Shown here in pieces: positions 4,534 through 55,763 of a DNA stretch of 64,000 bases (the stretch's first letter is position 1; each line of letters begins with the position of its first letter). The notes under the pieces are model-generated. The model searched no databases, was not told the origin of the DNA, and worked only from the letters and a program-made list of their open reading frames with translations. A program made the translations under genes and the position numbers. The DNA comes from Candidatus Latescibacterota bacterium (GTDB lineage: Bacteria > Latescibacterota > UBA2968 > GCA-2709665), in NCBI GenBank assembly GCA_965237675.1, contig OZ250150.1:4704001-4768000 (forward strand), written 5' to 3'.

Positions 4534-4565
4534 GTGTCCCTCACGATATATTTGGAATCGATATC

Positions 4566-4650
4566 AGGTAACATCCTAGGCACCCGCAGGCCGTGTAGGC
4601 GTTTGCGCATCGAGGCGAAAGCCCCGTAGCCGTGGGTGCTGGTGTTACCT
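4566..4650 (-). other. attC-like site
   Basis: AGGTAAC...GCACCC...GGGTGC...GTTACCT. Confidence 0.8.
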
Positions 4651-4694
4651 GCCGTGTACGCTTAACGGATTTGGAGCCTGTGAGGACGAAGGGG

Positions 4695-5979: not shown

Positions 5980-6015
5980 TGGAGTGGGGGTTAGAGAAAC
6001 CCTTGCCTCACATGT

Positions 6016-6062
6016 CCGATAAAATTCTCGGCACCCCCGAAGCCGGAGGCGCCGTGTTAACC
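6016..6062 (-). other. Short attC-like site
   Basis: CCGATAAA...CGGCACC...GGCGCCG-TGTTAACC. Confidence 0.6.
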
Positions 6063-6123
6063 GATGTGGAGGTCTGCCGGATCATCGTAGAGTTCAAGAG
6101 GCAATGATCGCCCCCTGATTTTT

Positions 6124-7002: not shown

Positions 7003-7156
7003 CTGTTCTCATTTCGATATGGATTTTTTGGATGAAATCCTCCGGGAAATGTACCGAATTTCAAATGGACAAGCAAAATCCAAATTGGTAGGGATGGGAT
7101 TTTGCTGTTGCCCCTCAGAACTTCATCTACCAAAAACCCCTTCAATCCTCCATGTC

Positions 7157-7243
7157 CGCTAACGTCCGCCGGTTTGCGAACCCCGAGCCTGGGGAGAGGT
7201 TGCCGAAGGCCAAGGCGCAACAGCGCAAACCGCGCTGTCATCC
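7157..7243 (-). other. attC-like site
   Basis: CGCTAAC...GGTTTGCG...CGCAAACC...GTCATCC. Confidence 0.8.
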
Positions 7244-7819
7244 GACGTGAAGACAAACTATATGAGTATGTTTCGAAGCGCACCTAACGACGAAATAATC
7301 TGTACGCCATCTATACATGCTGTGCTGAAACCTGACTCAATATCAGAATTTTCGCTGCCAAAATCCCGGGCGGCCGGCTCGGTGCCCCTGCCTTTCCTAT
7401 CAATCAGAATTGGAGTCATTCCAATTGCTTTAGCACCTACGATGTCGTCCTCAACAGAATCGCCAATGAACGCAACGTCCTCGGCTACCATTCCAATCTT
7501 GTTCAGCGCCAGGGAGAAGATCCCTGAGTCAGGTTTTTTTGAACCTACCTCTCCCGATACTACAACAGCATCGAAATACTGCGTGAGTCCCAGTTCCCGT
7601 AGGCGACAATGCACATGGGGTGGATGATCGAAATTCGTGATTAGGGCCATTCGATGCGAGCCTCTCACATCATTCAGTAGGCTTTGGGCTTTAGGATCAG
7701 GAAAGGTGTGCCGTGACCAAGAGTCTACACTCCTTTCCGAAATGTCTGACATCTCTCGAGCTGTAAATTCGACTCCGAGCTGTTCTCCCAAAGCCCCAAT
7801 ACGTCGCTCATACAACGTT

Positions 7820-9834: not shown

Positions 9835-10055
9835 AACGTTAGCTCTTTGGCGCCATCCATTGGGGGTTCCGGTTTGCTGAAGAATCCAGTGCAGATTGTT
9901 CGAAGGTAGTCTTTCTCGACCTTCACTCCAAATTCCGTCAGTGACTCACGGATGGAGTCAAACCACTCTTCCCAGGCCATCTTCATGTCCCCGTAAACAA
10001 GGATCGTACCATAAAGGTCAAAGAAAAGACCACTAAATCTGTGCGTTTTCATGTT

Positions 10056-10145
10056 GGATAACGTTCTGGCCACTTACGAACCCGCGCAGCGGGTTGCCAA
10101 TGGCCGAAGGAGTGTAGCGACAGAAGCGCAGAGGCGGTGTTAAAT
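10056..10145 (-). other. attC-like site
   Basis: GGATAAC...AACCCGCGCAGCGGGTT...GTTAAAT. Confidence 0.8.
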
Positions 10146-10228
10146 GACGGCAGCGCGCCCCAAAGGAGCGAAGCCGTAGAATGGCTGACATACAACGCAC
10201 ATCATTGGAGTATTGTCTTGCTCTGAAA

Positions 10229-10712: not shown

Positions 10713-11690
10713 TCAATCTATGCCTTCGATTGCAGCTTCGCCCATACGAATCGCCGCATGCGGGAGGGCGAGTATTCGGTCTTCCAGTTCCCAGATCTTC
10801 CGATTATGCGACTTTGGACCCCATTTCCGGTGGAGCTGACAAAGGCGCCTGGCATAGAAGGCAGCGAAGATGAGCGGGAGTGCGGTTCGTTCATCATCTG
10901 AGGGAGGCCGGACTGAGAAGTACCCCTCCACGAACCGCTGCATTTCCTCATCTGTAAGCTGTCGACCCACGGTCCCAATCAGCCATTGCATCCGGACCAT
11001 CACCACATCCACAAGCGCCGGAGCGAAGTGGGCAGAATTGAAGTCGGTGAACCTGACTTCACCTGAAGGGGAAGCAATCGTGTTCCTGCTTCGCACATCT
11101 CCGCGACAGAAGAGCCAACGAACGTTCATCTTGTTCGGCGTGTTATCCAGCTGTGCTCGAAGCCGGGTGACCGCATCTGCCGCGTTCGACGAGAACGTCG
11201 TCCTCTCGCAATACTCGAGAGCATCAGAGATGTACAGCCGCGCATCTTTGACTTCTGAACTGTAGACTGGAAAGTCTTCGCTCGCATCGTGAACCCGTGC
11301 GAGAGCCTCCCCCACGTTGCGGAGCGTATCGACGCGGTCTACAACCTCTCCTTCCAGGACGCTCTCGACCGAAATCACCAGGTCTCGAACGGATTTGCAG
11401 GGGCTGCCATCCGTGGTTGGAAGGATGTCAGGACACGGCGCGCCGCGATCAGAAAGGTGTCGAACGAACTCCACAATGGTTTTGGGGTGGGTCGAACCGT
11501 CCCATCCCGGATTTACGCGGAACACAACGCGTCCGTCCCGCAGACTGTCACAAAAGAAGACGCACCGTGAATTCGCCCTGCGGACTTTTGTTACTTTCAG
11601 ACCCCAGAATCGCTTGCAGAGTTCCGTGATCTCTCGCTGATCAGGCAGCGGGCCCGTTTCGTCTCTGGATCTGGGATAGAGGGCTTCCAT
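10713..11690 (-). CDS. Phosphotransferase (APH / homoserine kinase type II-like)
   Basis: LARVH...RGDVRSRN...FTDFN. Confidence 0.75.
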   Translation of the reverse strand: MEALYPRSRDETGPLPDQREITELCKRFWGLKVTKVRRANSRCVFFCDSLRDGRVVFRVNPGWDGSTHPKTIVEFVRHLSDRGAPCPDILPTTDGSPCKSVRDLVISVESVLEGEVVDRVDTLRNVGEALARVHDASEDFPVYSSEVKDARLYISDALEYCERTTFSSNAADAVTRLRAQLDNTPNKMNVRWLFCRGDVRSRNTIASPSGEVRFTDFNSAHFAPALVDVVMVRMQWLIGTVGRQLTDEEMQRFVEGYFSVRPPSDDERTALPLIFAAFYARRLCQLHRKWGPKSHNRKIWELEDRILALPHAAIRMGEAAIEGID

Positions 11691-11694
11691 AGGT

Positions 11695-11767
11695 TTTCCC
11701 GGCCCGGAACCGGTCGCATCGGTTGCGCGAAGGGCGCAAGCCCGAAGCCGTGGGCATGGTATTGGAG
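11695..11767 (-). other. Degenerate attC-like site
   Basis: AACCG...CGGTTGCGCGAAGGGCGCAAGCCCGAAGCC core shared with the sites at 18125, 21433 and 42619. Confidence 0.65.
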
Positions 11768-12358: not shown

Positions 12359-12395
12359 TCTTGCACTTCCCCTTGATCGGCCCACTCCACATGGC

Positions 12396-12540
12396 CTGCA
12401 ACGGTCTCGCCGGCCGCGAACCGGGCCGGCTGGCACGGCTCGTATCCCGGTGGTTTTGATGAAGCAGGCGCCGTTACTGCGATAGGCAGGCCAGGTATGG
12501 AGGCGCGATTGCGCGGGAGCCGCAGCCCGGCGTGTTAGCT
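12396..12540 (-). other. attC-like site (long)
   Basis: CTGCAAC...GCCGGCCGCG...CGCAGCCCGGCGTGTTAGCT. Confidence 0.7.
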
Positions 12541-12569
12541 GGATTTGCCGCCCGGGTGACTCGTATCGA

Positions 12570-13664: not shown

Positions 13665-13731
13665 ACTGGTCTCCGATTCACGCTTTGCACGCAATGACAA
13701 AGAGGAAGAGAATTTCTTCGCGGCAATTCTC

Positions 13732-13831
13732 AGCCAATGTCTCACCTGTTGCCGAACTCGCGAAGCGAGTTGGCGAAGGCCAAGGCGCCCTTCGGCAGGC
13801 TCAGGGCCGCAGCGGGAACGAGGTGCCAAAC
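13732..13831 (-). other. Degenerate attC-like site
   Basis: AGCCAAT...AACTCGCGAAGCGAGTT...; arms match the neighbouring cassette ends. Confidence 0.6.
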
Positions 13832-13904
13832 GACGTGGGATACGATCTCCCCTCAAGCTGTATCTTGAACCAAATTCCTATTGCTGTCCCACTTCATGCG
13901 CTAG

Positions 13905-14681: not shown

Positions 14682-14804
14682 GCTATATGGTTCCTTTTAA
14701 GCTTGAACAGCCCAAACTCATCATTAAACTGCGAAAATTCAGTATCTCTCTTTTAATTTTGGTGGCATACTGAATAGATATCTGTCTCACCTTCATGCCA
14801 TGTC

Positions 14805-14898
14805 TTTTAACGTTTTCACCATTTACGACCCCGTGCATGCGGGGTGCGCGCAAGCGCCAGCCACCGTATGCCGCTCAGCGCAAATGGACGTGATATAT
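14805..14898 (-). other. attC-like site with GAT core variant
   Basis: TTTTAAC...CCATTTACG...CGCAAATGG-ACGT-GATATAT. Confidence 0.75.
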
Positions 14899-14942
14899 GA
14901 AGTGGGAATTTTCGCTCGGGCAATTCTCTGTCGGTGTATTGC

Positions 14943-15845: not shown

Positions 15846-15880
15846 TTCCTCAAGTTATGTTGATTCTCTCTTCCCATTTT

Positions 15881-15966
15881 ATATATCGTCCTCGCGGGCT
15901 GCTAACCTGCGTGAGCAGGATTGGCGAAGTGGCGAAATCCTCGAGCCACAGCCCGTCGTGTTACAC
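15881..15966 (-). other. attC-like site with ATC core variant
   Basis: ATATATC...CGGGCTG...CAGCCCG-TCGT-GTTACAC. Confidence 0.75.
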
Positions 15967-16099
15967 GCTGGCGGCGATGCGTCCCCTTCAGGCCAAGCCC
16001 TAAGGGTGCTGGAATACAATGCACACCCGAAAGGGTTTTCGGCTCTCTGGCCATTGTGCCTCTGGAACGCCTCTCAGTCATTTGGCCTTGCGCTGCTCT

Positions 16100-16843: not shown

Positions 16844-16944
16844 GCTGACACCTCGTTGGAAGGGACTTGCTTTGGATAGGTTGGCTGCTGGTTTTGTGCA
16901 CGATTCTCCGAGGTTGGGTGGTTGGGCAATCCATCGCTACTTGC

Positions 16945-17014
16945 GTGCAACATTCTCGCCTTGCGCGAACTGTCGCAGGCCGTCAGATCTTAACCGCAAG
17001 CGGACGTGTTAGGC
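16945..17014 (-). other. attC-like site
   Basis: GTGCAAC...CTTGCG...CGCAAG...GTTAGGC. Confidence 0.75.
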
Positions 17015-17024
17015 GATTGCCGCA

Positions 17025-17498: not shown

Positions 17499-17512
17499 TC
17501 GATTCTGCCTTC

Positions 17513-17609
17513 GCCTAACGCTTCAGGGTTTGCGAACCCGGAGCGAAGCGAAGGGTTGCCCGATAGGGCCAAGCGGCGTATGCCGCACCGCGCAAGATCG
17601 GTGTTAACG
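17513..17609 (-). other. attC-like site
   Basis: GCCTAAC...TTGCGAACCC..GCGAAGC..GGGTT...CGCAA...GTTAACG. Confidence 0.85.
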
Positions 17610-17621
17610 GAAGTACGATCA

Positions 17622-18033: not shown

Positions 18034-18124
18034 TGGGTCCTCCATGCGGTTGTTAATTCGGGTGTTTGATAACAAACCTTGTTATCTTGATTTGCAGGCC
18101 GATACTGTGATTTTGGTCTCTTCA

Positions 18125-18206
18125 AGATATCGTTCTCGCCGTGCCCGAACCGCGAAAGTGGTTGCGCGAAGGGCGCAGCCCGTCGCCGGGCACGGTCGTG
18201 TTATGT
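18125..18206 (-). other. attC-like site
   Basis: AGATATC...CCGTGCCCG...CGGGCACGG-TCGT-GTTATGT. Confidence 0.85.
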
Positions 18207-18793
18207 GAAGTCACCTCTCTCCCTACGAGGCTATGGTAAGGCGTTTCCTATTCCTGCCTTGATCGCTTTGTAGGCCAGGGGTGAGAGTAAGGGCTTCCCT
18301 CGCTCAACTTTGGCCTCGAACGTGTCAAGTTCCTCAACCGTGAAATGGGATCTCGGCATGAATTCCAGATAGTTGGCAACCTCCATTTCAATGAGGTCGC
18401 GAAGATCCGCTTGCGTGACGGGTATGTTCTCCTCGTGAACACGGTTTCACACAGTTGCCCCTTCCTTTCCTAATCCTTCGAAGAACCCACTGCGGATCGA
18501 AACACTGAAGAGAAATGTCAAAATCGCTTGGCCCTCTCGCCAATCACTTGGCGGATGCGTTGGCGATCTTCAAGGGATGCTGACTCTGTCTTGTAGGATT
18601 GCGTGCCGTAGATGCTATGAAATAAACCTCCAAGAGACACGGCTTGGTCGTTGCCCCAAGCCTGGAGGAAGTTCGTGTGTTCCCCGAAGATGATCCAAAA
18701 GATACCCGCCGCTGTGAGGATTTTCGTCAGTGTTCAGGTCGCCTCGACCGTCACAGTGGCGATGGCTAACATAATAGTTGGTGATACCCCCTT

Positions 18794-18886
18794 TTATAGC
18801 GCAATCGCCATCTCCTCCGTCGCTTTCAGCAGCGCGTTGCCGATCACCTCGAACTGGATCGGATTGACTTCGGTCTTCGCATGCAA
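18794..18886 (-). pseudogene. N-terminal fragment resembling hydantoinase B/oxoprolinase
   Basis: AAGGAG RBS, then MHAKTEVNPIQFEVIGNALLKATEEMAIAL*. Confidence 0.55.
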
Positions 18887-20140
18887 CTACGGAATCTCCT
18901 TTAAGAAATGCCCTATCAGGCCGGTGTTCCGTGCCAGAAATCGTTGTACGCCGCCAGCGGCCCGTCCCCGTGCGGCCCGGTAGCCAGATCCAGCCCCCCG
19001 AAGAGATAGACGGACTCGCCCCCCACTGTCATAACGGGGATTCGCCTGACACCGGGACGTTCGGCGCCAGCAGAGTAATCCTCCGCACCGTTGTGTGGAT
19101 ATAGACAGTCCCACCGGCCGGCACGAAGATCGTACTGCCACAGATCGTTCAGCTGGGGGTGCTCCCCTTCCCCTCCTGCAAATCCTCCGAACAGATACAG
19201 GTGATCTCCGATCACAGCGTATCCCAGCCCGTACCGAGGGGAAGGCCGTGCAACATCATCCGACCGGTTCTCCTGAATGCAGGTCCAGGCGCCTCCGTCG
19301 GGATCGTATTCCCACAGATCGTTGTAGAACTCCGGCGCTCGACCCTGACTGTCCCGACCGCCCCACAGGTAGAGCCTGCCGTTCCAGCCGGCCAGCACGG
19401 GACAGTATCGTTTCGGCGGCCAACCGTTGCGTCCATTCGATGCAGGCCCCAGGTGCTCCCATTTCCCGGCCGGCGCCTTGTAGGTCCACAGCTGTGCGTG
19501 CGTCATCGCGCCATGGCCCCCCATCAGATACAGGTAATCACCCAGAACGGCCGCCCCCATCCCGCCCGAACCGGCGGGACGATGCCCATCCGCCGTTATT
19601 CCTGATGCGCGCCCGTCGTCGGGCTCTAACAGCTCCCACGAGGCTGTCTTCGGATCGTAGGCCCAGAGATCGTTCAGCTTGATCTCCCTCTTGCCGGGGC
19701 CCCGCACTGAGGACCCGCCAAAAAGATAAAGCCTGCCGTTCACGGGCAGCCAGGTCGTGAGCTTCCGGGTACACGGTCTGGTATCGGACGGTCTGAACCC
19801 GATGCGCCCATCGTGGTCTTCCAACCGCGTCCACCGGCCTCGACCCGGGTCGTAGCGCCACAGGTCGTTCAATGAGCCCTGGACGGAAAGATCTCCAGGC
19901 CCTTTCGGCCGGCCGTACATCACTTTTATCCCCCCGAACAGGTAGACGCATCCATTGTAGCTCAACATCCCGCCGAAGGCCGCCCGCCTACAGGGTACAT
20001 CCTCGGCTTGCTCCTGGTCTGGATGCAGCAGTTCCCACTTCATAGTGGACCTCCGCACGGCCTGACTTGTGATTCTGCGGAGAAAGTTCGGCATATTCCA
20101 TTCGTAGCCGAAAAACTTGATACAGTTTATTCGCCGTGGA
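18842..20140. repeat. 1.3-kb near-identical duplication, copy 1 (copy 2 at 31011-32309)
   Basis: Direct sequence comparison, offset 12169. Confidence 0.95.
18916..20043 (-). CDS. Kelch-repeat beta-propeller protein
   Basis: Repeated LYLFGG...NDLW.YD. Confidence 0.9.
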   Translation of the reverse strand: MKWELLHPDQEQAEDVPCRRAAFGGMLSYNGCVYLFGGIKVMYGRPKGPGDLSVQGSLNDLWRYDPGRGRWTRLEDHDGRIGFRPSDTRPCTRKLTTWLPVNGRLYLFGGSSVRGPGKREIKLNDLWAYDPKTASWELLEPDDGRASGITADGHRPAGSGGMGAAVLGDYLYLMGGHGAMTHAQLWTYKAPAGKWEHLGPASNGRNGWPPKRYCPVLAGWNGRLYLWGGRDSQGRAPEFYNDLWEYDPDGGAWTCIQENRSDDVARPSPRYGLGYAVIGDHLYLFGGFAGGEGEHPQLNDLWQYDLRAGRWDCLYPHNGAEDYSAGAERPGVRRIPVMTVGGESVYLFGGLDLATGPHGDGPLAAYNDFWHGTPA

Positions 20141-20220
20141 AGACTTCAAAATAAGGTGGTTGTTGCCTTTTGTGCGCGATTTTTTGGGGTAATGTGGCTG
20201 GGAACACTTGCGCCGCTTTC

Positions 20221-20321
20221 GGTTAACGGTTCTTGGCTTTACGACGTGGGCCAGTCCCAAAGGCCCATGTGCCCGCAGGGCCGAGGGGCGGATGCCCCGA
20301 AGCGTAAAGCCGGTGTTAGCC
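20221..20321 (-). other. attC-like site
   Basis: GGTTAAC...GGCTTTACG...CGTAAAGCC-GGT-GTTAGCC. Confidence 0.85.
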
Positions 20322-20400
20322 GTCGTTATTAATTCGTATCCGTTCATTGTCGGGGCCTTATGTATCAAAATGTAGCCGCTAACTCATTCAGGCAGACTTC

Positions 20401-21321
20401 TCATTCACCAAAAAACGGGTACGGCTCGCCGGCTTCCACCAGCCTTTGTACCAGACTCGAGTACTTCAACACCTCCGTCAGCCGGGTGCGCCAATGCGGG
20501 GCGTAGAAGCCGACGAATTCCTGGAAGAACGCTCGCGCATCCTCACTGACGCCATCGAAGTATTGCGGCAGCAAAAACCATGGCTGGTCACTGGCGTAGT
20601 TCAGCCCCCGCTGGCGCATCGTGAACTCTGCGGCGGCCCGTTTTTTTACCGAGATCATCAACGAGCGCCTGAGCTTGTCGGTGTGATAGCGGCCCCGATG
20701 AATGCACAACTGGGTAAACAGCACCGCGTCACCGGGTTCCTGGTGGAGACGAACGGCGCCAGGCATATCGTTCGAGCGGTTGTGGATCCCATCATCGGCG
20801 ACGCAGATCGCGTGCTCTTCGGGGGAGTAGTCACGCAGGTGAGACCCCGGCACCACTTCGAGATCGTCGGTAGGGACCAATGCGATTTGCATCTGCAACC
20901 CGGCTCCGGTCTCCGGTCTCCGGGATACGTCTGCTTCTGCACCGATCTTGTCCTTGTGCCAAAATCCGTCCTGGCTTTCTCCGGTCGGATTACAGTAGAG
21001 ACTGCTCAAGGCGAAGAGGAATTCTTCATCCAAGGCTGCGCTCAGCGATTCGACAACTTGGGGCGACCCCATGGCATTGAGCAGAAAGGCGAGATCGTCG
21101 GGGTGATCGCGGTGATATTCCGGGTCGTTCAGGTGCCTCATGTAATTGGCCTGGGGCCCCACCGGTGGATTGTCACAGCGAGGAGCGCGCCGCCACTGTT
21201 CCAGCACTCGCTCACAGATCTCGCGCAGCCGTTTTGTCGTCGCTGCGTCGAACAAACCGCGCACCACGGCGTAAGAGTGTTGGCGTAGCTGCCCAGGGCA
21301 GGGTTCAGTAGCAATACTCAT
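20401..21321 (-). CDS. Phytanoyl-CoA dioxygenase (PhyH)-family protein, copy 1
   Basis: WHKD; VVPGSH; PGDAVLF...IHRG. Confidence 0.85.
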   Translation of the reverse strand: MSIATEPCPGQLRQHSYAVVRGLFDAATTKRLREICERVLEQWRRAPRCDNPPVGPQANYMRHLNDPEYHRDHPDDLAFLLNAMGSPQVVESLSAALDEEFLFALSSLYCNPTGESQDGFWHKDKIGAEADVSRRPETGAGLQMQIALVPTDDLEVVPGSHLRDYSPEEHAICVADDGIHNRSNDMPGAVRLHQEPGDAVLFTQLCIHRGRYHTDKLRRSLMISVKKRAAAEFTMRQRGLNYASDQPWFLLPQYFDGVSEDARAFFQEFVGFYAPHWRTRLTEVLKYSSLVQRLVEAGEPYPFFGE

Positions 21322-21432
21322 TATATCCTCTTGTGTTGCTGTAAGAATTGCGTCGCAATTGGACTGTAAAAGTGCGGACAGGCTGTCTCGTGCTGTCTAA
21401 CTACGTATGGAAATCAATGCTCTATTAATTGC

Positions 21433-21516
21433 GGCTAACGTTTTCGCCGTGCCCGAACCGCGAAGCGGTTGCGCGAAGGGCCGTATGGCCCGTAGCCGGG
21501 CACGGACGTGTTATGT
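21433..21516 (-). other. attC-like site
   Basis: GGCTAAC-7nt-CCGTGCCCG...CGGGCACGG-4nt-GTTATGT. Confidence 0.9.
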
Positions 21517-21635
21517 GTTGTGCCAGCCGGGGGGCGGGGGCGGCCTTGCCACGGATGGCAAGGCCGCTTTGTCGCTGAAACAGAATTTCCGCTAAATGAA
21601 TTATTCAGCGGAAATCTTGAAAGAAGAACGAGGGA

Positions 21636-22281: not shown

Positions 22282-22471
22282 TATATATCATATTGTTTTT
22301 AATATGGTAAAGACGGTTCAATTCTGCTGCGATTGGTCACCTATAGACCTGCTATAAATCTACATATCTTAATTAAGTTCTTCAAGCGAAATTTCCGCTA
22401 CTGAAGAACGTAGTGAGATTCTCTTGGGCGGCCAGGACGGCCGCCTGCTTTTGGAGGAAGGCTGGCATGGC

Positions 22472-22559
22472 TTATAACGTTCCCGCGGGCTGCGAACCTG
22501 CGCCAGCAGGTTGCTGCGGAGGCCCGAAAGGGCCGGAGCCGCAGCCCGACGTGTTAGCT
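22472..22559 (-). other. attC-like site
   Basis: TTATAAC...CGGGCTGCG...CGCAGCCCG-ACGT-GTTAGCT. Confidence 0.9.
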
Positions 22560-22620
22560 GCAGTTGTCCCTAGCTAATGCGATGCGTTAAGAATCTCGAA
22601 GTCGTCTTCAGTGTTTTTTA

Positions 22621-23160: not shown

Positions 23161-23189
23161 GTAGACATCGCGATCTCTGGGGCAATTGC

Positions 23190-23341
23190 AGATAACGTTC
23201 CCGGGCTATACGACGTTCCCCGGTCCGGCGAAGCCGGATTGGCGCGGCGCTTGCGTCTCTCAGCAAGCGACGTGACAAAGGGGAATGTGCCCGAAGGGCC
23301 GGAGGGAGCGAAGCGACCGGAGCGAATAGCCCGTGTTAGCA
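23190..23341 (-). other. attC-like site (long)
   Basis: AGATAAC...CGGGCTAT...ATAGCCCG-T-GTTAGCA. Confidence 0.85.
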
Positions 23342-23939
23342 GAAGTCGCATCGGGGTGGCGCCCCTCTCGGTCCTGGAGATCGGGGCGTACATACAGCGT
23401 GCGACATAGGTTTGGTTCCTCTCATCTGATTGGGATGACCTGAGATCCGATTCGAAAAAATGGTTTAGCCCTAGGCAATACCGAAGAGATCACGACATCT
23501 CTCCAAAACCTTCACGTCAGGACCAGCAAGGGCAGTGGCCCCTCCAAGCGGCACGCGAGCAAAGTGATCCCGAACTTAGCGGCATGCCCTCTGGGTAGGG
23601 GCGCAGCCTTCGGCATAGTCAAGTCATTAGCAAGTGAGCTTTTGGACAAGACGAAGGTGCATTCCGCCGGATATTCAGTTTTCTCCGTCGCCTTTTCGCC
23701 ACTTCGATAGGTGTAAAAATCAAGCAACCGGTGTGACACAGGCCAATGTGTGGGTAGTGGTGTTGAGGTGGGTCCAGGAGCGCTTTATTTTGCGACGGCG
23801 CTCATGGCCCGACAATACAGATCTTCTACGTCGATGTCCGAGGCCGTCACTTCGGAGCACCACGCACGAAGTGTATGGGAGGCTCGATATGTTCGCTACG
23901 GCTCAAGTGATTCCTGATTGCGTTCCCGAATCCGCTTAG

Positions 23940-25627
23940 CCCGATTAATTCATGAATCGTCAGATAGAGCATTTTAAGGAAGCAGAAAGAGCTTCCGAGT
24001 GAGACAAGAAACGAAAGCGCATGGGCTGTGACGGATTTGGCGTGTTCAAGCCGTTTGGGCGGCGCCTGCTTTGCCTCGTGACGTCAGGTTGACCTCGATG
24101 CCCGTGTCAAGCGCACAGACTTCTCCATGACCTTTGGTGGTGGTCGATGCAAATGTGAAGGCGGGGTCAGCACGTCGATGGGTTATGGAACACCCGTTGC
24201 CAGATTATAGAGGATCTTGCCATAAAGGTGTTTGAGTGGAAACGCCGTTGGCAGATGGAACTTGATTTTAGTTTTCAACTCACAAACGCGCCCGGCGACT
24301 TTCAAGAGACGATTTTGCAGGGTATTGAACTGTGCGTTGGTCCACTTCGTGCCGCGCAATCCGATTGCAGCCAGGCTGTGCATCAGGACATAGGCGGCGC
24401 TGTGGAGAAAGAGACGGAAGTGATTGGCCTGGAAGGTGTGACAAGAGGTGCGATCGGAATGGAGAAAGGTCTTGTGATTTTTGATGAAGTTTTCCATCCT
24501 GCCGCGTGTGCAATAGGCGGTTTTGTAGATGAATGACGGTTGGGCGCGCTTCAGGTTGGTGACCACGAATCGGATATTGACACCTTGCGGTGTCACTTCC
24601 GCCTTGCAGACGATGCGTTGTGGACACGCCCAGGTGCCGGCCTGATAGGCCCAACAGCGATAAAGGCGCACGGTTTCTCCGGAATCGGCATACCGCGTTT
24701 TGGCCTGGTCTATCAAGGACTGTGCCTTCCGCAGGAGTTTGGCGTTGCCGTTCTGTCCGAGGACAAAATACACATCTTCTTCCTCACACAACACGTGCAC
24801 TTCCGGACACGAAAAATGCGCATCGCCACGTAACAGGATCTCCACGTCGGGCCAGGCTTTACGCAGGTAGGCGATCACCCGTTTGAGGATGGTGACGATC
24901 TCTTTACCCGCAGGCCGCCTGCCAGGACGCAAGACCGTCGTGATCAACTTGCCGGTTTGGCCTTCATAGATATGCAGGGGCTGGTAGCAATAGCCATTGA
25001 AATACGCATTGAACAACGACAACTGTTGAGACCCATGCACCTTGTCTTCGGTGTCATCGATGTCCAACAGAATGGCTTCCGGCGGTTCCTCATACGAGGC
25101 GACAAACACATCCGCAAAGGCCTTGGCGATCCGATACAAATCGGTTCTGCTGATGCGGTTCTCGAACCGACTCATCGTGGGCTGACTGGCCAGGTCCGCG
25201 CCAGACAACGGCAACCGATCACAGGCCGCCTTGAAGCCGGGGTCCTCGCGTAACGTCTTGCAATCATTCGCATCCTCATACCCACAGGCCATCTGAAAGA
25301 CACGTTGTTTGATCAGGTCCATCATCGAATGATGTACGTAACTTTGATGTCGATGATCGGTGAGCGCCGCAACCATCCGATGCAAAATGCCGACATTGGC
25401 CTCGACCTCACGAAGCAGCATCACCCCGACGTCGGTCGTCAGCACGCCCCCGTCGAACGTGGCTTCTACCTGCCTACCAGAAAGACTTGCGAAAGACAAC
25501 CTGTGATGTTTATCTTGAACTCCCACGGTAGTTTCCTCCTGTTTCATTGTTATTAGGTTATTTGCGTAACCATAATATAATACAATGACTTGGGTATGGA
25601 AACTACCTTTTTTGTGAATTATTCAGG
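23940..25627 (-). mobile_element. IS1380-family element, copy 1 (1688 bp)
   Basis: IRs CCCGATTAATTCA / TGAATTATTCAGG; 4-bp TSD TTAG. Confidence 0.92.
24183..25547 (-). CDS. IS1380-family transposase
   Basis: FDGG..TTD.G; GYEDAND; LASQPTMSR; LDIDDT; RGDAHF; RG.MENFIK. Confidence 0.92.
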   Translation of the reverse strand: MKQEETTVGVQDKHHRLSFASLSGRQVEATFDGGVLTTDVGVMLLREVEANVGILHRMVAALTDHRHQSYVHHSMMDLIKQRVFQMACGYEDANDCKTLREDPGFKAACDRLPLSGADLASQPTMSRFENRISRTDLYRIAKAFADVFVASYEEPPEAILLDIDDTEDKVHGSQQLSLFNAYFNGYCYQPLHIYEGQTGKLITTVLRPGRRPAGKEIVTILKRVIAYLRKAWPDVEILLRGDAHFSCPEVHVLCEEEDVYFVLGQNGNAKLLRKAQSLIDQAKTRYADSGETVRLYRCWAYQAGTWACPQRIVCKAEVTPQGVNIRFVVTNLKRAQPSFIYKTAYCTRGRMENFIKNHKTFLHSDRTSCHTFQANHFRLFLHSAAYVLMHSLAAIGLRGTKWTNAQFNTLQNRLLKVAGRVCELKTKIKFHLPTAFPLKHLYGKILYNLATGVP

Positions 25628-26074
25628 TTAGGTCTTCGAAATAAGAAATAGATAGAAGCACCAAGGACATTGGAGCCAAGAATTGTAATGCCCCAACCCA
25701 ACTTCTGCCCAGGCTACCACTGACATTGACGGGCGCCCAATGCCAGCAACAGCATGATGCGCTCGCAGGGGCAGATCAGAGACCCGAGGAAACGCGAGAA
25801 GACAGGACCAGGATGGCAACAAATGGTCAAGTCTCCCTTACGTGTCATATCTCTCTGAACGATACGTAAGGGGTCTCCTGATGTCAATGTGCCAGGGAGG
25901 AAACGCCGGCCGGGGATCAGGGCCTGTGGCGTCCGTTGCCAAGGGGTCGCGGCGGATCGGGCCTTCCGGCGCATTGGGTGAATCACGTTGTGATTAGCCG
26001 GTTCCTGGGGACGTCGATTCCCCGAGTCGGCGAAGCGACGAATCCCGCAGATAAGTCCCGCAACGGGCGCATGC

Positions 26075-27451: not shown

Positions 27452-27779
27452 CGCGTCACCTCTCTCTGGGGTTACCCCAGTTTAGTGGACGGTTCCTTAA
27501 CTGCACATTCAATGAGCATCCACAGCCAGAAACCTATCATGCCCAAGAGGAGGACAAGCAGGATTTCCCAAAGACCTATGCCGAACATTCTCGCCTCCCT
27601 TGTTTTCGGTCAATCGAATGGTTGATAATTATCTCGAGCTTTGGATTTAGGGAAGATCTGACTCGGGATTTCTCCGCTGTCGCATAAATCCAAGTATAGG
27701 AACGAGTGTTGATGGTGGGGAGGGTGGGGCTATTTTTGCACGCAATCACGGTTCTTCTGGGGGTGGTGGGGGCGATTTC

Positions 27780-27913
27780 TGCTAACTACGGTATTACCGA
27801 ACAGTTACGGTAATGCGTACCTGATCCGAAGATCTGCGAACGTTCGGGAACATTCCACGCTGAAGCTTGTAGCCCGAACATGTTCAGGAATGCTTCCTAT
27901 GGTGGCATCGTCT
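27780..27913 (-). other. attI-like platform site, copy 1
   Basis: Identity among the three copies starts at GCTAAC; ATTACCG-AACAGTTA-CGGTAAT palindrome. Confidence 0.75.
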
Positions 27914-28102
27914 CTAATCAAAAACTGCCTCCCTTTCTTCCATCAATGCATCCAGCGGGCTCTGGATTTTCGCGAGATCCCGATTCGTCACCCGAGTATA
28001 GATCTGTGTGGTCTTTGGGCTTACGTGCCCGAGCAACACCTGGATATATCGCAGGTCCGTCCCGCGTTCAAGCAGGTGTGTCGCAAAGGAATGCCGTAGC
28101 GT
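27914..28102 (-). pseudogene. 3' fragment of the tyrosine recombinase
   Basis: Encodes [26 protein letters not shown]...; near-identical to 53835-54023. Confidence 0.9.
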
Positions 28103-28481
28103 CGGTATCCGCTGGACAATTTTCGCTTTCTCGCAAGCCCAGTCAAACGCGGTCTGTACCGACCTCTCCCTGTGCTATCGGATTTCGCCAACCCATTGCG
28201 CCCAAAAAACGGGAGCAACTTAGTCGTGAAACTGAAATCCCAAGTCTCAAATATCGCCACTCACTCGAACCGCATCCATTCAACAATATCATCGAGAGCC
28301 TTGTCTTGATAGCTCACCGCGTCCTCCCGTCCTACAAAGCCATGAACAAAATCCGTGGAGGCAGTCGCCTTCCTTGGATCATCATTCCACACGTGATACT
28401 CCCTCAGCCCAATTACCGTCGTGGGCATACACATTATACGGGCTGACAATGCACTTGAAATCCAGCAGTATGCATAGTTCG

Positions 28482-28913: not shown

Positions 28914-29009
28914 CCAGTCCCCACATTGCTTTGTGAAAAAGTTATTATGACATACGAAAAAGGAACCCCACGGTAGTCGGTGTGTGCCATTCTTTGATTT
29001 CTTGCGTGC

Positions 29010-29092
29010 AGTCAACGATCTCACGGGCCGTGAACCTGCGAAGCAGGTTGGGCGACGGGCGTAAACCCGAAGGCGGGGGCACGGTGTTAGAC
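29010..29092 (-). other. attC-like site
   Basis: AGTCAAC...AACCTGCGAAGCAGGTT...GTTAGAC. Confidence 0.75.
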
Positions 29093-29128
29093 GAAGGGCA
29101 GTTTCGGTCAATGTCCCTACGACTTGGC

Positions 29129-30979: not shown

Positions 30980-31084
30980 ACGTTCATCACCTTGATGATC
31001 ATCCGTTGCGGATCACCTCGAACTGGATCGGATTGACTTCGGTCTTCGCATGCAACTACGGAATCTCCTTTAAGAAATGCCCTA

Positions 31085-32212
31085 TCAGGCCGGTGTTCCG
31101 TGCCAGAAATCGTTGTACGCCGCCAGCGGCCCGTCCCCGTGCGGCCCGGTAGCCAGATCCAGCCCCCCGAAGAGATAGACGGACTCGCCCCCCACTGTCA
31201 TAACGGGGATTCGCCTGACACCGGGACGTTCGGCGCCAGCAGAGTAATCCTCCGCACCGTTGTGTGGATATAGACAGTCCCACCGGCCGGCACGAAGATC
31301 GTACTGCCACAGATCGTTCAGCTGGGGGTGCTCCCCTTCCCCTCCTGCAAATCCTCCGAACAGATACAGGTGATCTCCGATCACAGCGTATCCCAGCCCG
31401 TACCGAGGGGAAGGCCGTGCAACATCATCCGACCGGTTCTCCTGAATGCAGGTCCAGGCGCCTCCGTCGGGATCGTATTCCCACAGATCGTTGTAGAACT
31501 CCGGCGCTCGACCCTGACTGTCCCGACCGCCCCACAGGTAGAGCCTGCCGTTCCAGCCGGCCAGCACGGGACAGTATCGTTTCGGCGGCCAACCGTTGCG
31601 TCCATTCGATGCAGGCCCCAGGTGCTCCCATTTCCCGGCCGGCGCCTTGTAGGTCCACAGCTGTGCGTGCGTCATCGCGCCATGGCCCCCCATCAGATAC
31701 AGGTAATCACCCAGAACGGCCGCCCCCATCCCGCCCGAACCGGCGGGACGATGCCCATCCGCCGTTATTCCTGATGCGCGCCCGTCGTCGGGCTCTAACA
31801 GCTCCCACGAGGCTGTCTTCGGATCGTAGGCCCAGAGATCGTTCAGCTTGATCTCCCTCTTGCCGGGGCCCCGCACTGAGGACCCGCCAAAAAGATAAAG
31901 CCTGCCGTTCACGGGCAGCCAGGTCGTGAGCTTCCGGGTACACGGTCTGGTATCGGACGGTCTGAACCCGATGCGCCCATCGTGGTCTTCCAACCGCGTC
32001 CACCGGCCTCGACCCGGGTCGTAGCGCCACAGGTCGTTCAATGAGCCCTGGACGGAAAGATCTCCAGGCCCTTTCGGCCGGCCGTACATCACTTTTATCC
32101 CCCCGAACAGGTAGACGCATCCATTGTAGCTCAACATCCCTCCGAAGGCCGCCCGCTTACAGGGTACATCCTCGGCTTGCTCCTGGTCTGGATGCAGCAG
32201 TTCCCACTTCAT
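31085..32212 (-). CDS. Kelch-repeat protein, copy 2
   Basis: Near-identical to 18916-20043. Confidence 0.9.
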   Translation of the reverse strand: MKWELLHPDQEQAEDVPCKRAAFGGMLSYNGCVYLFGGIKVMYGRPKGPGDLSVQGSLNDLWRYDPGRGRWTRLEDHDGRIGFRPSDTRPCTRKLTTWLPVNGRLYLFGGSSVRGPGKREIKLNDLWAYDPKTASWELLEPDDGRASGITADGHRPAGSGGMGAAVLGDYLYLMGGHGAMTHAQLWTYKAPAGKWEHLGPASNGRNGWPPKRYCPVLAGWNGRLYLWGGRDSQGRAPEFYNDLWEYDPDGGAWTCIQENRSDDVARPSPRYGLGYAVIGDHLYLFGGFAGGEGEHPQLNDLWQYDLRAGRWDCLYPHNGAEDYSAGAERPGVRRIPVMTVGGESVYLFGGLDLATGPHGDGPLAAYNDFWHGTPA

Positions 32213-32327
32213 AGTGGACCTCCGTACGGCCTAACTTGTGATTCTGGGTAGAAAGTTCGGCATATTCCATTCGTAGACGAAAAACTTGATGCAGTTTATT
32301 CGCCGTGGATGATTGTTGAACCCCTAA

Positions 32328-34015
32328 CCCGATTAATTCATGAATCGTCAGATAGAGCATTTTAAGGAAGCAGAAAGAGCTTCCGAGTGAGACAAGAAAC
32401 GAAAGCGCATGGGCTGTGACGGATTTGGCGTGTTCAAGCCGTTTGGGCGGCGCCTGCTTTGCCTCGTGACGTCAGGTTGACCTCGATGCCCGTGTCAAGC
32501 GCACAGACTTCTCCATGACCTTTGGTGGTGGTCGATGCAAATGTGAAGGCGGGGTCAGCACGTCGATGGGTTATGGAACACCCGTTGCCAGATTATAGAG
32601 GATCTTGCCATAAAGGTGTTTGAGTGGAAACGCCGTTGGCAGATGGAACTTGATCCTGGTTTTCAACTCACAAACGCGCCCGGCGACTTTCAAGAGACGA
32701 TTTTGCAGGGTATTGAACTGTGCGTTGGTCCACTTCGTGCCGCGCAATCCGATTGCAGCCAGGCTGTGCATCAGGACATAGGCGGCGCTGTGGAGAAAGA
32801 GACGGAAGTGATTGGCCTGGAAGGTGTGACAAGAGGTGCGATCGGAATGGAGAAAGGTCTTGTGATTCTTGATGAAGTTTTCCATCCTGCCGCGTGCGCA
32901 ATAGGCGGTTTTGTAGATGAATGACGGTTGGGCGCGCTTTAGGTTGGTGACCACGAATCGGATATTGTCTCCTTGCGGCGTCACCTCCGCCTTGCAGATG
33001 ATGCGTTGTGGACACGCCCAGGTGCCGGCCTGATAGGCCCAACAGCGATAAAGGCGCACGGTTTCGCCGGAAGCAGCATACCGCGTTTTGGCCTGGTCTA
33101 TCAAGGACTGTGCCGAGCGCAGGAGTTTGGCGTTGCCGTTCTGTCCGAGGACAAAATACACATTCTGGTCCTCACACAACACGTGCACTTCCGGACACGA
33201 AAAATGCGCATCGCCACGTAACAGGATCTCCACGTCGGGCCAGGCTTTACGCAGGTAGGCGATCACCCGTTTGAGGATGGTGACGATCTCTTTACCCGCA
33301 GGCCGCCTGCCAGGACGCAAGACCGTCGTGATCAACTTGCCGGTTTGGCCTTCATAGATATGCAGGGGCTGGTAGCAATAGCCATTGAAATACGCATTGA
33401 ACAACGACAACTGTTGAGACCCATACACCTTGTCTTCCGTGTCATCGATATCCAACAGAATGGCTTCCGGCGGTTCCTCATACGAGGCGACAAACACATC
33501 CGCAAAGGCCTTGGCGATCCGATACAAATCGGTTCTGCTGATCCGGTTCTCGAACCGACTCATCGTGGGCTGACTGGCCAGATCCGCACCGGAAAGCGGC
33601 AACCGATCACAGGCCGCCTTGAAGCCGGGATCCTCGCGCAACGTCTTGCAATCGTTCGCATCCTCATAGCCACAGGCCATCTGAAAGACACGTTGTTTGA
33701 TCAGGTCCGTCATCGAATGATGTACGTAACTTTGATGTCGATGATCGGTGAGCGCCGCAACCATCCGATGCAAAATGCCGACATTGGCCTCGACCTCACG
33801 AAGCAGCATCACCCCGACGTCGGTCGTCAGCACGCCCCCGTCGAACGTGGCTTCTACCTGCCTACCAGAAAGACTTGCGAAAGACAACCTGTGATGTTTA
33901 TCTTGAACTCCCACGGTAGTTTCCTCCTGTTTCATTGTTATTAGGTTATTTGCGTAACCATAATATAATACAATGACTTGGGTATGGAAACTACCTTTTT
34001 TGTGAATTATTCAGG
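32328..34015 (-). mobile_element. IS1380-family element, copy 2 (transposase 32571-33935)
   Basis: Same IRs; TSD CTAA; about 10 aa differences from copies 1 and 3. Confidence 0.92.
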
Positions 34016-34025
34016 CTAAATGGCT

Positions 34026-36540: not shown

Positions 36541-36745
36541 TTGACCGTCACCGGGTAGCCTTTCACTTATTGTGCACTCATATTGGTCTTCTCGCCGCCA
36601 ACTCTTGCTTATACAGAAAAATCTGGTCGAAAAAACTCCGTATAGCTCATTCGCTGTCGAACAAATCCATCAAGCAAGAGAAGTGGTTCAAAGATTTTCC
36701 TGGCGGCCGGGACGGCCGCCTGTTTTGACTTTGGCGCGTGCTTTC

Positions 36746-36842
36746 TGTTAACGTTATGCCGGTTTGCGAGGGCCGAGCTGACGAGGCGTTGCCGATGGCC
36801 AAGGCGGCGACCGCAGCAGCAGCGCAAACTGTGCTGTTATCT
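36746..36842 (-). other. attC-like site
   Basis: TGTTAAC...GTTTGCG...CGCAAAC...GTTATCT. Confidence 0.8.
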
Positions 36843-36894
36843 GACGTGCGATACCCAAATTGTATCGCCCGCAACGTAACGCGGTTCGACACGT

Positions 36895-40407: not shown

Positions 40408-40440
40408 TTTTCCCTCCTTTGGGGTAGTAGGGGCGATTTC

Positions 40441-40544
40441 CGTTAACGGCCTCGCGATATCCGACGTTGCCGGAGCGTAGCGGAGGTAATGTGCCCGGAG
40501 GGCCGAATGACCGAAGGGAGTGTAGCGGGCATCGCGTGTTAAGC
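40441..40544 (-). other. attC-like site
   Basis: CGTTAAC...CGCGAT...ATCGCG-T-GTTAAGC. Confidence 0.8.
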
Positions 40545-40760
40545 GTCCGTGTTGTTTTTTGTCATCAGGAATGGAATAAAGGAGCGGACATCACTTTCTC
40601 TGTTTTTCCGGCTTTTCTGCTTTTCAACAAGAAGATTACTGTTGTACCGATTCCTCGCCAGATAGCAACTGACGGAGGTCTATGTTGATATATTCGATAT
40701 GCAGTCGAAACCAACGGATCGACACTGAATCTGAATTGTACCTTCCAACAGAATCTCCCT

Positions 40761-40895
40761 GTTCTCGGCACCCGCAAACCTGCCGAGCCATCGCGAATGC
40801 AGTCAACGGATCCCCATAGTTGCAGACCAGCTACGCGGGCGGCAGGTTTCAGCGCAGGCGCGAACACGCCGACGCCACGGGTGCTCGTGTTAGCT
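40761..40895 (-). other. attC-like site (left core lost)
   Basis: GCACCCG...CGGGTGC-TCGT-GTTAGCT. Confidence 0.7.
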
Positions 40896-42603: not shown

Positions 42604-42618
42604 ACTGTCGCAAATTGC

Positions 42619-42701
42619 AGCTAACGTCTCCGCCGTGCCCGAACCACGAAAGCGGTTGCGCGAAGGGCGTAAGCCCGAAGCCGGGCACGGACGTGTTAGG
42701 C
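42619..42701 (-). other. attC-like site
   Basis: AGCTAAC-7nt-CCGTGCCCG...CGGGCACGG-4nt-GTTAGGC. Confidence 0.9.
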
Positions 42702-42790
42702 GGCGTTGCTGTTTTATATCTCAGCCCAGGAATACCCAATCTTGCCGGCTGAGAGGTACTATTCCCCAAGCTGCGAGAAGTTCGCGTCCC

Positions 42791-43603: not shown

Positions 43604-43633
43604 CTGATGTCTCCGGAGACGGGTTGCAATGCC

Positions 43634-43723
43634 GCCTAACGTTTCCGCTGTGTGCGAACCTGCCGCAGGCAGGTTGGGTCGGAGGGAGCGTAGCGACCGC
43701 AGCCGCACACGGACGTGTTAGCC
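43634..43723 (-). other. attC-like site
   Basis: GCCTAAC...TGTGTGCG...CGCACAC...GTTAGCC. Confidence 0.9.
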
Positions 43724-43882
43724 GGTTGTGCCGTTTTAGGGTATCGGTAAAGCCATAACGGGGCCGACATAACCTTCTTTTGTCTTTCTTGATTTTGACC
43801 TCCAAAAACTTCCAAGATAAAATAAATCGGCGGTATTAAGTCAAACCGCCGAGGTGGAGAGTTGCTTTTTCTTCTCAATGAG

Positions 43883-44152
43883 CTACAGAAAAAAGAAACT
43901 TCCCACACAGGCCGTAACTTTGACAATACTGTAGAGAAATTCAGGTGCGAAGTCGGCTTCATTCTTCCACATTATCGTATGTAGGTCAGGGTGAACTCGG
44001 AATTTCTTGAATTCCTCTTTATCCTTCAACGACTCAAAAACGGGACCCCATAGTTCATCTTTCAACTCTACCTCTCCCTCCACACCATCACTGAATTTGA
44101 GCCAGATCACATAGTCGCCTACATAGTGAGCTTCAATAACACGGGGTATCAT
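43883..44152 (-). CDS. DUF2442 protein (stop mutated, 8 aa longer than copy 2)
   Basis: GPVFE.L...W.NEADFAPE. Confidence 0.85.
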   Translation of the reverse strand: MIPRVIEAHYVGDYVIWLKFSDGVEGEVELKDELWGPVFESLKDKEEFKKFRVHPDLHTIMWKNEADFAPEFLYSIVKVTACVGSFFFL

Positions 44153-44156
44153 CTTC

Positions 44157-44414
44157 TCACTCCAAGGGTGCAATTTTATTCAACGGACGACGCTGGTCTG
44201 CGCGTTCCCAATTCTCCATCAGTTCTCTTTGGTGCAGATCATACCATTCCAGAACATGCCTCAGAGCCCGTCTAGGAAATTGGCCTGTCACAACGCCTGT
44301 CTCAATATCGACCGTGATGTCATATTCACCGTATGTGGCGTGAAAATGGGGTGGTCCGTGCTCACGATAAAACATACCAATCACGATCCCAAGAAAACGA
44401 CTAATCTCCGGCAT
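44157..44414 (-). CDS. DUF4160 protein (putative toxin)
   Basis: MPEISRFLGI...EHGPPHFHA...EL.ENW. Confidence 0.9.
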   Translation of the reverse strand: MPEISRFLGIVIGMFYREHGPPHFHATYGEYDITVDIETGVVTGQFPRRALRHVLEWYDLHQRELMENWERADQRRPLNKIAPLE

Positions 44415-44536
44415 AATTATATTTTACAATAATTTATAGGAAAATGCAACTACTTAATGACTTGCGCTTCAGGGTAGGGCTGGGGTTGTTTTTTGCCCCC
44501 TTTTCGATAAGGAATCAGACAAAAAAACGGCATGGC

Positions 44537-44679
44537 GGCTAACGGTCAAGCACCCACGAACCTGCCAAGCTGGCGCGGCGCTTGCCCCTCGCGATTTTCT
44601 TCAAGCAAGCGCCGTGACAGCGACAGGCAGGTTGCGCGGAGGCGCGGACGCGCCGAAGCCGGGGGTGCCGTTGTTATGC
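44537..44679 (-). other. attC-like site (long)
   Basis: GGCTAAC...GCACCC...GGGTGC...GTTATGC. Confidence 0.85.
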
Positions 44680-44801
44680 GAATCTGGCGCGGTCCCTTTC
44701 TGGCGAAGCCCTCATAGGGCCAGCGTAGAGCGGGCAACGATATCAGGTTTGTTGTGGCTGTTCCCCGAATCAGAATCAGCTGCGAAATGGTTCCGAAGTC
44801 T

Positions 44802-45254: not shown

Positions 45255-45390
45255 CCTTGGTCCTCTCCTGGAGACAGAGTAAAGTGCATAAGAGGTTTCA
45301 CGTGACTTTCAGCGCAAGGGTGGTCTGGGTTTGATCTTGCCCGCCTTGACAAGGGGTGGGTGGATGCGGTTCCTGCTCTGCGCCAGTTTC

Positions 45391-45466
45391 GCATAACGTG
45401 CTTGATGTGCGAAGCCGCCGCAGGCGGTTTGGGCGAACGTAGTGAGCCGCACATCTTTTGTTAACG
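45391..45466 (-). other. attC-like site
   Basis: GCATAAC...GATGTGCG...CGCACATC...GTTAACG. Confidence 0.85.
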
Positions 45467-45564
45467 GGCGTGCGGCACGGTGGTTGGGTGGGGTTGCAGG
45501 ATGCAAGCTTGGGATGTCTTTGTCTTCAGAAAATCTACTCGATTCTCAGAACTACACACGTCAT

Positions 45565-47646: not shown

Positions 47647-47733
47647 CGGTTTACACCTCAGGTGAAATGCTGGATCGACGTGTATCAGCGATTCTTTGCT
47701 TTTGGCGGCCAGGGATGGCCGCTCTGTCTTTGT

Positions 47734-55759: not shown

Positions 55760-55763
55760 CTTC

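Follow-up and report, generated by a model that had tools for sequence, protein, structure and literature searches.

The 64,000-nucleotide stretch of DNA that we analysed (hereafter the window) carries a long series of attC-like hairpin sites on the + strand, most of them separated by a single open reading frame (ORF) on the opposite strand. The genes lying between these sites are varied and include PhyH, Kelch, PIN, SET, ankyrin, GT2, NUDIX and DUF2442 genes. To their right, a tyrosine recombinase gene without the I2 region (53835-54836, minus strand) is co-oriented with these cassettes, which extend to its left on the minus strand. The array also contains a 1.7-kb insertion sequence (IS) coding for a DDE_Tnp_1_4 transposase (23937-25631, minus strand), with further copies at 32323-34018 and, inverted, at 49152-50846. 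One IS copy sits between the last attC-like site and the first cassette beside the integrase. That first unit, adjacent to the attI-like junction described below (51080-53353, minus strand), codes for a 757-aa glycoside-hydrolase-like protein (GHL6, Glyco_hydro_42M), which is unusually large for a cassette; its end abuts the IS, and no attC was found there.

The site from which this study started (21429-21520, + strand) reads, from 21436 to 21513, TAAC-GTTTTCG-CCGTGCCCG-AACCGCGAAGCGGTT-GCGCGAA-GGGCCGTATGGCCC-GTAGC-CGGGCACGG-ACGT-GTTA. It comprises an R box (TAAC/GTTA), a 5' spacer GTTTT(CG), a 9-bp stem, two sub-hairpins and a bulged A, and it scores 106.8 bits with R1, a covariance model that we built from five such sites. 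The layout given in the preliminary description for 21433-21516 was right as drawn, except that the two linkers GCGCGAA and GTAGC had been omitted. Folding with DNA parameters reproduced the perfect 9-bp stem with two sub-hairpins reported there, together with a GC/GC extension of the second sub-hairpin, and produced a three-way junction with zero unpaired junction bases (-27.3 kcal/mol, z -3.49). In the minimum-energy fold, two extra base pairs (CG/CG) form past a lone A that bulges from the 3' arm, which leaves two readings of the internal loop, 7/4 and 5/1 plus one bulge. The asymmetric 7/4 loop initially described is thus a valid reading of this site, but the accompanying statement that it has no obvious extrahelical base is to be qualified by the minimum-energy fold, where the bulged A is followed by 2 bp. 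These two extra pairs covary (CG/CG at 21429, GG/CC at 48951); a bulged A after 2 bp was seen in 7 of the 12 window sites that could be parsed, and the bulge is a T, not an A, at sites 18121 and 15877. In the window sites, the bulged A could serve as an extrahelical base. The same layout recurs at all five other positions for which it had been claimed, with 7/4 spacing at 22475, 42622 and 43637, 6/4 at 45394 and 11/4 (or 9/1 plus 2 bp) at 48958; the stems were said to be different, and they are, apart from one stem common to 21436 and 42622.

Searching the window with R1 yielded 31 matches at E<=10, 28 of which are on the + strand; at E<=0.3 all 24 matches are on this strand and run from 4562 to 49069. 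The leftmost site (4562-4654; 76.4 bits, folded) is a divergent member, followed by a short and degenerate one at 6013-6066 (E 0.0065), in which the minus strand is the stabler. Next come sites at 7153-7247 (27.7 bits), 10052-10149 (21.7 bits), 11685-11767 (27 bits, with degenerate ends), 12392-12544 (a long site, 25.2 bits), 13731-13835 (weak, E 0.12), 14801-14902 (31.2 bits), 15877-15970 (44.2 bits), 16941-17018 (24 bits), 17509-17613 (weak, E 0.18) and 18121-18210 (75.5 bits), all on the + strand. In the sequences of the sites at 15877-15970 and 18121-18210, TATC replaces TAAC and the bulged base is T; both are otherwise well-formed and may be inactivated sites or a sub-type. The site of the PhyH cassette (20217-20325, 34.5 bits) has 7/3 spacers and folds into a four-way branched structure. 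Beyond the site at 21429, the + strand carries sites at 22468-22563 (91.9 bits, with its fold), 23186-23345 (a long site, 31.7 bits, whose + strand is 10.5 kcal/mol stabler), 29006-29096 (22.6 bits), 36742-36846 (34.2 bits), 40437-40548 (20.4 bits) and 40763-40888 (a partial match to the inner part only, model positions 14-81, E 0.096). These are followed by 42615-42705 (94.7 bits, with a main stem identical to that at 21429), 43630-43727 (77.3 bits), the long site 44533-44683 (found by its fold, by partial R1 matches and by a rule scan at 44540-44676) and 45387-45470 (32.9 bits, with 6/4 spacers). The site at 47739-47847, detected by R1 and by self-comparison, is a second copy of that at 20217, carried by the duplicated PhyH cassette, and the site nearest the integrase (48951-49069, 37.3 bits) is the one in which GG/CC replaces CG/CG past the bulged A.

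These sites have a marked strand polarity. Within 26 window sites, the motif CGNAG occurs 61 times on the + strand and 10 times on the minus strand, in agreement with the GNA loops first noticed on the + strand, and GCGNAGC is found in 10 of the 26 on the + strand and in 1 on the minus strand. The + strand folds more stably in 21 of the 26. In 22 of the 25 inter-site intervals the minus strand carries the longest ORF, which identifies the + strand as the bottom strand of the cassettes, as initially proposed. Covariation of the stems, also put forward at the outset, was borne out in an alignment of 51 sites from the window and other phyla (A5): both sides change in 20 of 24 pairs, including all 11 pairs of the main helix, and the paired fraction of cells is 91.6%, compared with 67.2% in shuffles, none of the 500 of which reached the observed value; these pairing counts are inflated because this alignment was fitted to the covariance model. 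TAAC/GTTA is nearly invariant and paired in 94.4% of cells of the same fitted alignment, and the ends of the sites are conserved as 5'-T..C...TAAC|GTTYY and T-GTTA...G.

To look at the distribution of the sites over the whole 5.6-Mb genome we applied a strict rule that demands TAACG and TGTTA around a perfect stem of 7 bp or more. It retrieved 10 sites on the + strand and none on the minus strand, 7 of them in the window and the remaining 3 in another, smaller array of sites of this class, also on the + strand (G000:C1:1405600-1412300; strict-rule sites near C1:1.406-1.412 Mb). No recombinase of the I2-less family was detected beside this second array. A lone site of the same class lies at C1:4608792-4608882. 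The window had no match in Rfam, and GC-rich intergenic hairpins of this kind might be palindromic elements or terminators unconnected with recombination. We consider this highly improbable, since the stems covary between invariant AAC/GTT ends, the sites are confined to two arrays in 5.6 Mb, the duplicated cassettes and attI junctions end at TAAC, and sites adjoin one recombinase family across phyla, as shown below.

Duplicated cassettes in the window allow the crossover point to be approached. The PhyH cassette (20208-21442, minus strand) has a second copy at 47730-48964 (99.8%), with its right boundary inside TAAC|GTT; at the left the identity extends 19 nt past TAAC, so this pair alone does not fix the crossover. 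The cassette with a DUF2442 gene at 43746-44543 recurs at 55353-56150 (minus strand), where it abuts a second attI-like region, and here identity stops exactly at TAAC: this end is followed by an attC site at one place and by an attI-like region at the other. A Kelch-repeat gene is also duplicated (18835-20140 and 31004-32309, 99.3%); its duplication covers the inner part of the cassette only and is therefore not a clean cassette copy. The attI-like region itself (53704-53834, minus strand) directly follows the stop codon of the integrase; its junction TAAC is at 53704-53707 and it contains the inverted repeats CGAACGTTCG, GAACATGTTC and ATTACCG..CGGTAAT. The integrase 3' end plus ~130 bp is present in three copies (27779-28147, 53694-54083 and 56137-56527), which align up to TAAC and then diverge 3-4 nt to its left. 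The two additional copies correspond to integrase remnants on the minus strand, one consisting of the last ~85-95 residues (56279-56533) with its own attI-like region at ~56147-56278, and the other a C-terminal fragment with an internal TAG stop (27917-28180) with its own attI-like region at ~27783-27916.

A recombinase without I2 might also be expected to work as Xer enzymes do, on double-stranded AACGTT cores, the hairpins then serving another purpose such as transcription termination. Recombinases lacking I2 normally act on duplex DNA (PMC7790495), AACGTT is palindromic, and the attI-like region holds CGAACGTTCG and GAACATGTTC. However, the flanks of AAC|GTT do not form an inverted repeat. 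T..C...TAAC has its partner, GTTA...G, 70-190 nt off at the opposite end of the site, and only folding can bring the two together into a duplex R box. Moreover, the stems covary, the two strands differ in their unpaired features and in stability, the bottom one being the stabler, as in canonical attC sites, and XerCD are reported to recombine a folded single strand without I2 (PMC5027507). For these reasons we regard recombination on double-stranded cores as unlikely. We consider it probable instead that the repeats are attC-type cassette recombination sites belonging to a chromosomal integron-like platform of more than 50 kb, in a lineage whose integrase lacks I2.

The recombinase of the window is a 5'-truncated member of a family of 360-390-aa proteins, represented here by the 376-aa P0002. 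The region 53847-54647 corresponds to residues 107-373 of P0002, with 97% identity; the homology breaks at 54647/54648, the N-terminus of the ORF is unrelated to the family, and the family N-terminal domain is missing. A search of the whole genome did not find this domain encoded anywhere, and in one genome of the same genus it is present in another reading frame. The tyrosine-recombinase catalytic motifs, including IYT, can be recognised in the translated ORF and when it is aligned with 2a3v, the structure of VchIntIA, which is the best PDB match of the ORF (E 3.4e-43, in two pieces). The IntI-specific domain of ~35 residues near patch III, containing the I2 helix, is absent: residues 171-239 of IntI4 (69 residues, the stretch in which the IntI-specific domain lies) correspond to just 27 residues in the window protein, and ~41 residues are missing where the I2 helix lies. 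Accordingly, the ORF scores 213.8 bits with TIGR02249 (cut-off 265), leaving model positions 175-234 unmatched; its score with NF040815 is 218.6 bits (cut-off 220). The AlphaFold model of P0002 (mean pLDDT 80.4) predicts an N-terminal domain at residues 9-72, with a beta-beta-alpha-beta-beta-alpha-beta arrangement, followed by a disordered linker. The best structural match of the modelled core is also 2a3v; the search with the whole protein was dominated by this core and gave no fold match for the N-terminal domain. The platform has decayed in this genome: each of the three integrase copies is truncated, and the array is broken up by IS elements. The enzyme encoded here may be inactive, so that the local array tells nothing of current activity.

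Proteins of this I2-less family are found well beyond the genome studied here. We collected 80 loci from named public genomes, including Bacillota, Spirochaetota, Bacteroidota, Nitrospirota, Ignavibacteriota, Thermodesulfobacteriota and some archaea. In every family locus where the motif was found, 99-104 residues separate box I from box II (100 in the window enzyme), compared with 141 in canonical IntI. R1 produced 32 matches in the 80 loci, 31 of which lie downstream of the recombinase gene on the opposite strand, in 14 loci. The strict rule gave the same asymmetry, with 97 matches in the downstream opposite-strand sector (244 kb), whereas downstream matches on the strand of the gene itself numbered 5 and upstream ones 2 + 4 (476 kb), in a scan in which a site may occasionally have been matched twice, one locus (L045) was set aside because of a parsing fault and 7 loci had no parsable gene. 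Among the 38 family loci with at least 1 kb of downstream sequence, 26 have a site and 12 have none by the strict rule. In a Desulfitobacterium locus, each of the eight inter-site intervals contains an ORF pointing the same way as the integrase gene. An attI-like layout recurs after the stop codon, with an inverted repeat of the CGAAC..GTTCG type 20-40 nt before ..GA|GTTA, as judged by eye in 18 loci plus the window.

The architecture of the sites in these arrays was examined after choosing them by their end motifs alone. Their spacers are 5/1, 6/2, 6/4, 5/3, 7/3, 7/4 or 4/1 nt, and their stems run uninterrupted for 8-19 bp and mostly end in a junction; bulges are limited to an A or T at position 11, present in some of the sites. 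When no spacer sequence was imposed, 86 of 125 sites had a 5' spacer longer than the 3' one by 2-4 nt; the control sectors for this spacer geometry hold mirror images of true sites on the other strand, and the genome-wide scan with the strict rule provides a cleaner null. AAC is followed by G in 86 and then by T in 73 of 124 sites, and T precedes GTT in 93 of the 124. The consensus emerging under these conditions is T..C...TAAC-GTYY and T-GTTA...G..G. Some members of the I2-less family have plain, unbranched hairpins. The initial portrayal of the sites as branched, GNA-looped hairpins with atypical spacing stands, but it is the spacing that distinguishes the class, not the branching or the GNA loops.

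Spirochaetes provided a control in which a co-oriented integrase has retained I2. Canonical IntI was detected in 14 of 121 sampled Spirochaetota genomes (TIGR02249, 358-504 bits). An example of 423 aa, with cassettes co-oriented with it, has the motif SSQNQAL, which is that of the Treponema denticola integrase (PMC4909258). From the C of AAC inward, the sites in these I2-bearing arrays show 9 bp, a bulge on the 3' arm, 6 bp and another bulge on the 3' arm; in the numbering of PMC5027507 the bulges occupy positions 16 and 23, as in a textbook attC. The parser that returned uninterrupted stems, lacking G16 and T23, for the I2-less arrays reads 9-[0/1]-6-[0/1] here. R1 found nothing significant in the spirochaete I2-bearing integrons (best E 0.076). 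Since the 13 canonical spirochaete sites are 84% identical, a miss in the window by a model derived from them would mean nothing. Two further spirochaete IntI loci (L119 and L120) had no sites by the scans that we used. A ~70-residue N-terminal domain with the signature PGRxW...W.IP is common to the I2-bearing reverse integrases of spirochaetes (L105 1180-2451) and the I2-less family (P0002 residues 9-72). Forward IntIs lack it.

Across many phyla, site geometry and integrase deviate from the canonical system in corresponding ways. The early idea of a different site code suited to an I2-less enzyme is supported by this comparative evidence, namely the 99-104-residue spans, the downstream arrays, the lack of IntI above the TIGR02249 cut-off in all five array-bearing genomes of the I2-less family that were searched, and the spirochaete control. 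Alternatively, the window could be an ordinary CALIN, in which a canonical I2-bearing IntI has left conventional attC sites behind or serves them in trans, the I2-less recombinase being an unrelated neighbour. CALINs are common, and no intact integrase was found in this genome. A genome of the same family, G017, does have canonical IntI, with one lone site of our class 18 kb away. Yet no array of this class adjoins the G017 canonical IntI, around which we found only that lone site and a few canonical-looking palindromes. IntI above the cut-off is absent from this genome and from all 15 genomes of the genus, this one included. In addition, the gene-attI-array layout is repeated in 26 of 38 loci across phyla, canonical IntI occurs in none of the five array genomes, and the canonical bulges and two-arm spacers of 5-6 nt that accompany I2-bearing integrases are absent here. 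An ordinary CALIN is, consequently, a quite unlikely explanation. At G017:C1:2493564-2495721 and 2158606-2160406, a canonical IntI (one full, one partial) precedes the same 314-aa I2-less recombinase, of which there are further copies elsewhere, an arrangement that looks like a mobile unit.

The platform that we favour, with its own I2-less integrase, shares many traits with canonical integrons (class 1; Vibrio cholerae; 2a3v). Both have arrays of mostly single-ORF cassettes and imperfect palindromes with AAC...GTT ends and a crossover at AAC, putative for the window, and VchIntIA is the closest solved relative by both sequence and fold. The canonical R'/R'' pairing (5'-RYYYAAC, 5'-GTTRRRY) is found on the folded bottom strand, and attI and cassette junctions end at TAAC. 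The bottom strand is also the stabler one, by about 2.1 kcal/mol in canonical attC sites (PMC5027507), and the terminal structure is variable and sometimes branched, with a junction in most of our parsed sites. By contrast, the enzyme lacks ~41 residues at I2 and scores below the IntI cut-off, and it is co-oriented with the cassettes. Canonical attC sites have 5-6 unpaired, non-conserved spacer bases on each arm and extrahelical bases at positions 16 (G) and 23/24 (T) (PMC5027507), separated by 6 bp on the '' arm. The window-type sites have neither: their spacer is one-sided (5-7 versus 1-4 nt) with a conserved GTTYY, and the G16/T23 bulges are missing. With reverse integrons of the Treponema denticola type the platform shares an integrase oriented as the cassettes, an attI after its 3' end and the PGRxW...W.IP domain; those integrases, however, keep I2 (358-504 bits) and their sites are textbook attC, neither of which applies here. 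Existing tools would probably class the window among the CALINs of Cury et al. 2016, because none of its proteins can satisfy an IntI-specific profile. The window differs from CALINs in having a cognate-looking integrase remnant and an attI-like junction, and elsewhere the same arrays have an intact, adjacent I2-less integrase. Finally, the action of XerCD on the folded single-stranded CTX attP (IMEX) likewise involves a tyrosine recombinase without I2 and a folded single strand, and PMC5027507 names it as the only other case of its kind, but it consists of a single integration at dif by the host Xer, with no dedicated integrase, attI or cassette array.

These comparisons suggest how the system could work, with folding, cleavage point and strand choice extrapolated from IntI. 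The bottom strand would fold, TAAC pairing with GTTA to form the R box, and the integrase would cleave between the A and the C of TAAC, as IntI does. A second subunit would presumably sit on the long uninterrupted stem. The enzyme would recognise strand and polarity by the one-sided spacer, whose 5' arm has 5-7 nt with GTTYY and whose 3' arm has 1-4 nt, instead of by extrahelical G16/T23 held by I2, and the branched, GNA-capped tip may aid folding of the bottom strand. In a maximum-likelihood tree of 39 core sequences rooted on the two Xer of this genome, a quick search on a small sample in which the I2 columns were retained, the 14 I2-bearing integrases form one clade (support 100), placed among unresolved I2-less lineages. 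More tentatively, and with more doubt than conviction, we propose that I2 is dispensable for the capture of cassettes through folded single-stranded hairpins, and that a widespread I2-less lineage (Bacillota, Bacteroidota, Spirochaetota, Nitrospirota, Ignavibacteriota, Thermodesulfobacteriota and this genome), using a one-sided spacer code, is ancestral to the I2-bearing integrons. Under this proposal, reverse orientation and the N-terminal domain would be ancestral, and I2 and the bulged bases would have been gained together.

Several elements of this picture were already known. Branched terminal structures have been reported in long chromosomal attC sites, some attC sites recombine without their extrahelical bases (PMC5027507), and reverse integrons have been described (PMC4909258; 10.1101/2022.02.06.479319). 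For cassette arrays tied to an I2-less integrase we found no published description in a literature search that covered mostly open-access journals. Detection tools define integrons by the I2 domain, and Cury et al. 2016 judged recombinases without intI_Cterm beside attC not to be IntI (PMC4889954). Supplementary Figure S1 and the tables of that work account for 21 such recombinases, and its text mentions four as intermediate between IntI and Xer, each with <3 sites (PMC4889954); the 21 may include members of the I2-less family. The same study reports CALINs in Firmicutes (PMC4889954), and if these are arrays of the type described here, some such sites pass the standard attC model. Smyshlyaev et al. 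2021 describe the insertion as 'not fully conserved' in the integron-like subgroup (PMC8138268). According to Escudero et al. 2020, I2 reads the extrahelical bases of attC and its gain was the step from double-strand to single-strand recombination (PMC7790495), which is the accepted account. If the I2-less family does drive these arrays, integron-like gene capture would be far wider than catalogued, reaching Gram-positive phyla in which complete integrons are reported missing, and many CALINs may have an unrecognised integrase alongside. The origin of integrons would then become testable through two natural enzyme-site pairs that differ in I2 and in the bulged bases.

Just beyond the integrase remnants of the window, a gene on the + strand (57467-59593) codes for a 708-aa family-B DNA polymerase with DNA_pol_B, exonuclease and RNase_H_2 domains, and adjoins a gene for a peptidoglycan-binding protein (56604-57350). 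The proximity of a family-B polymerase to tyrosine-recombinase remnants recalls self-synthesising elements such as pipolins.
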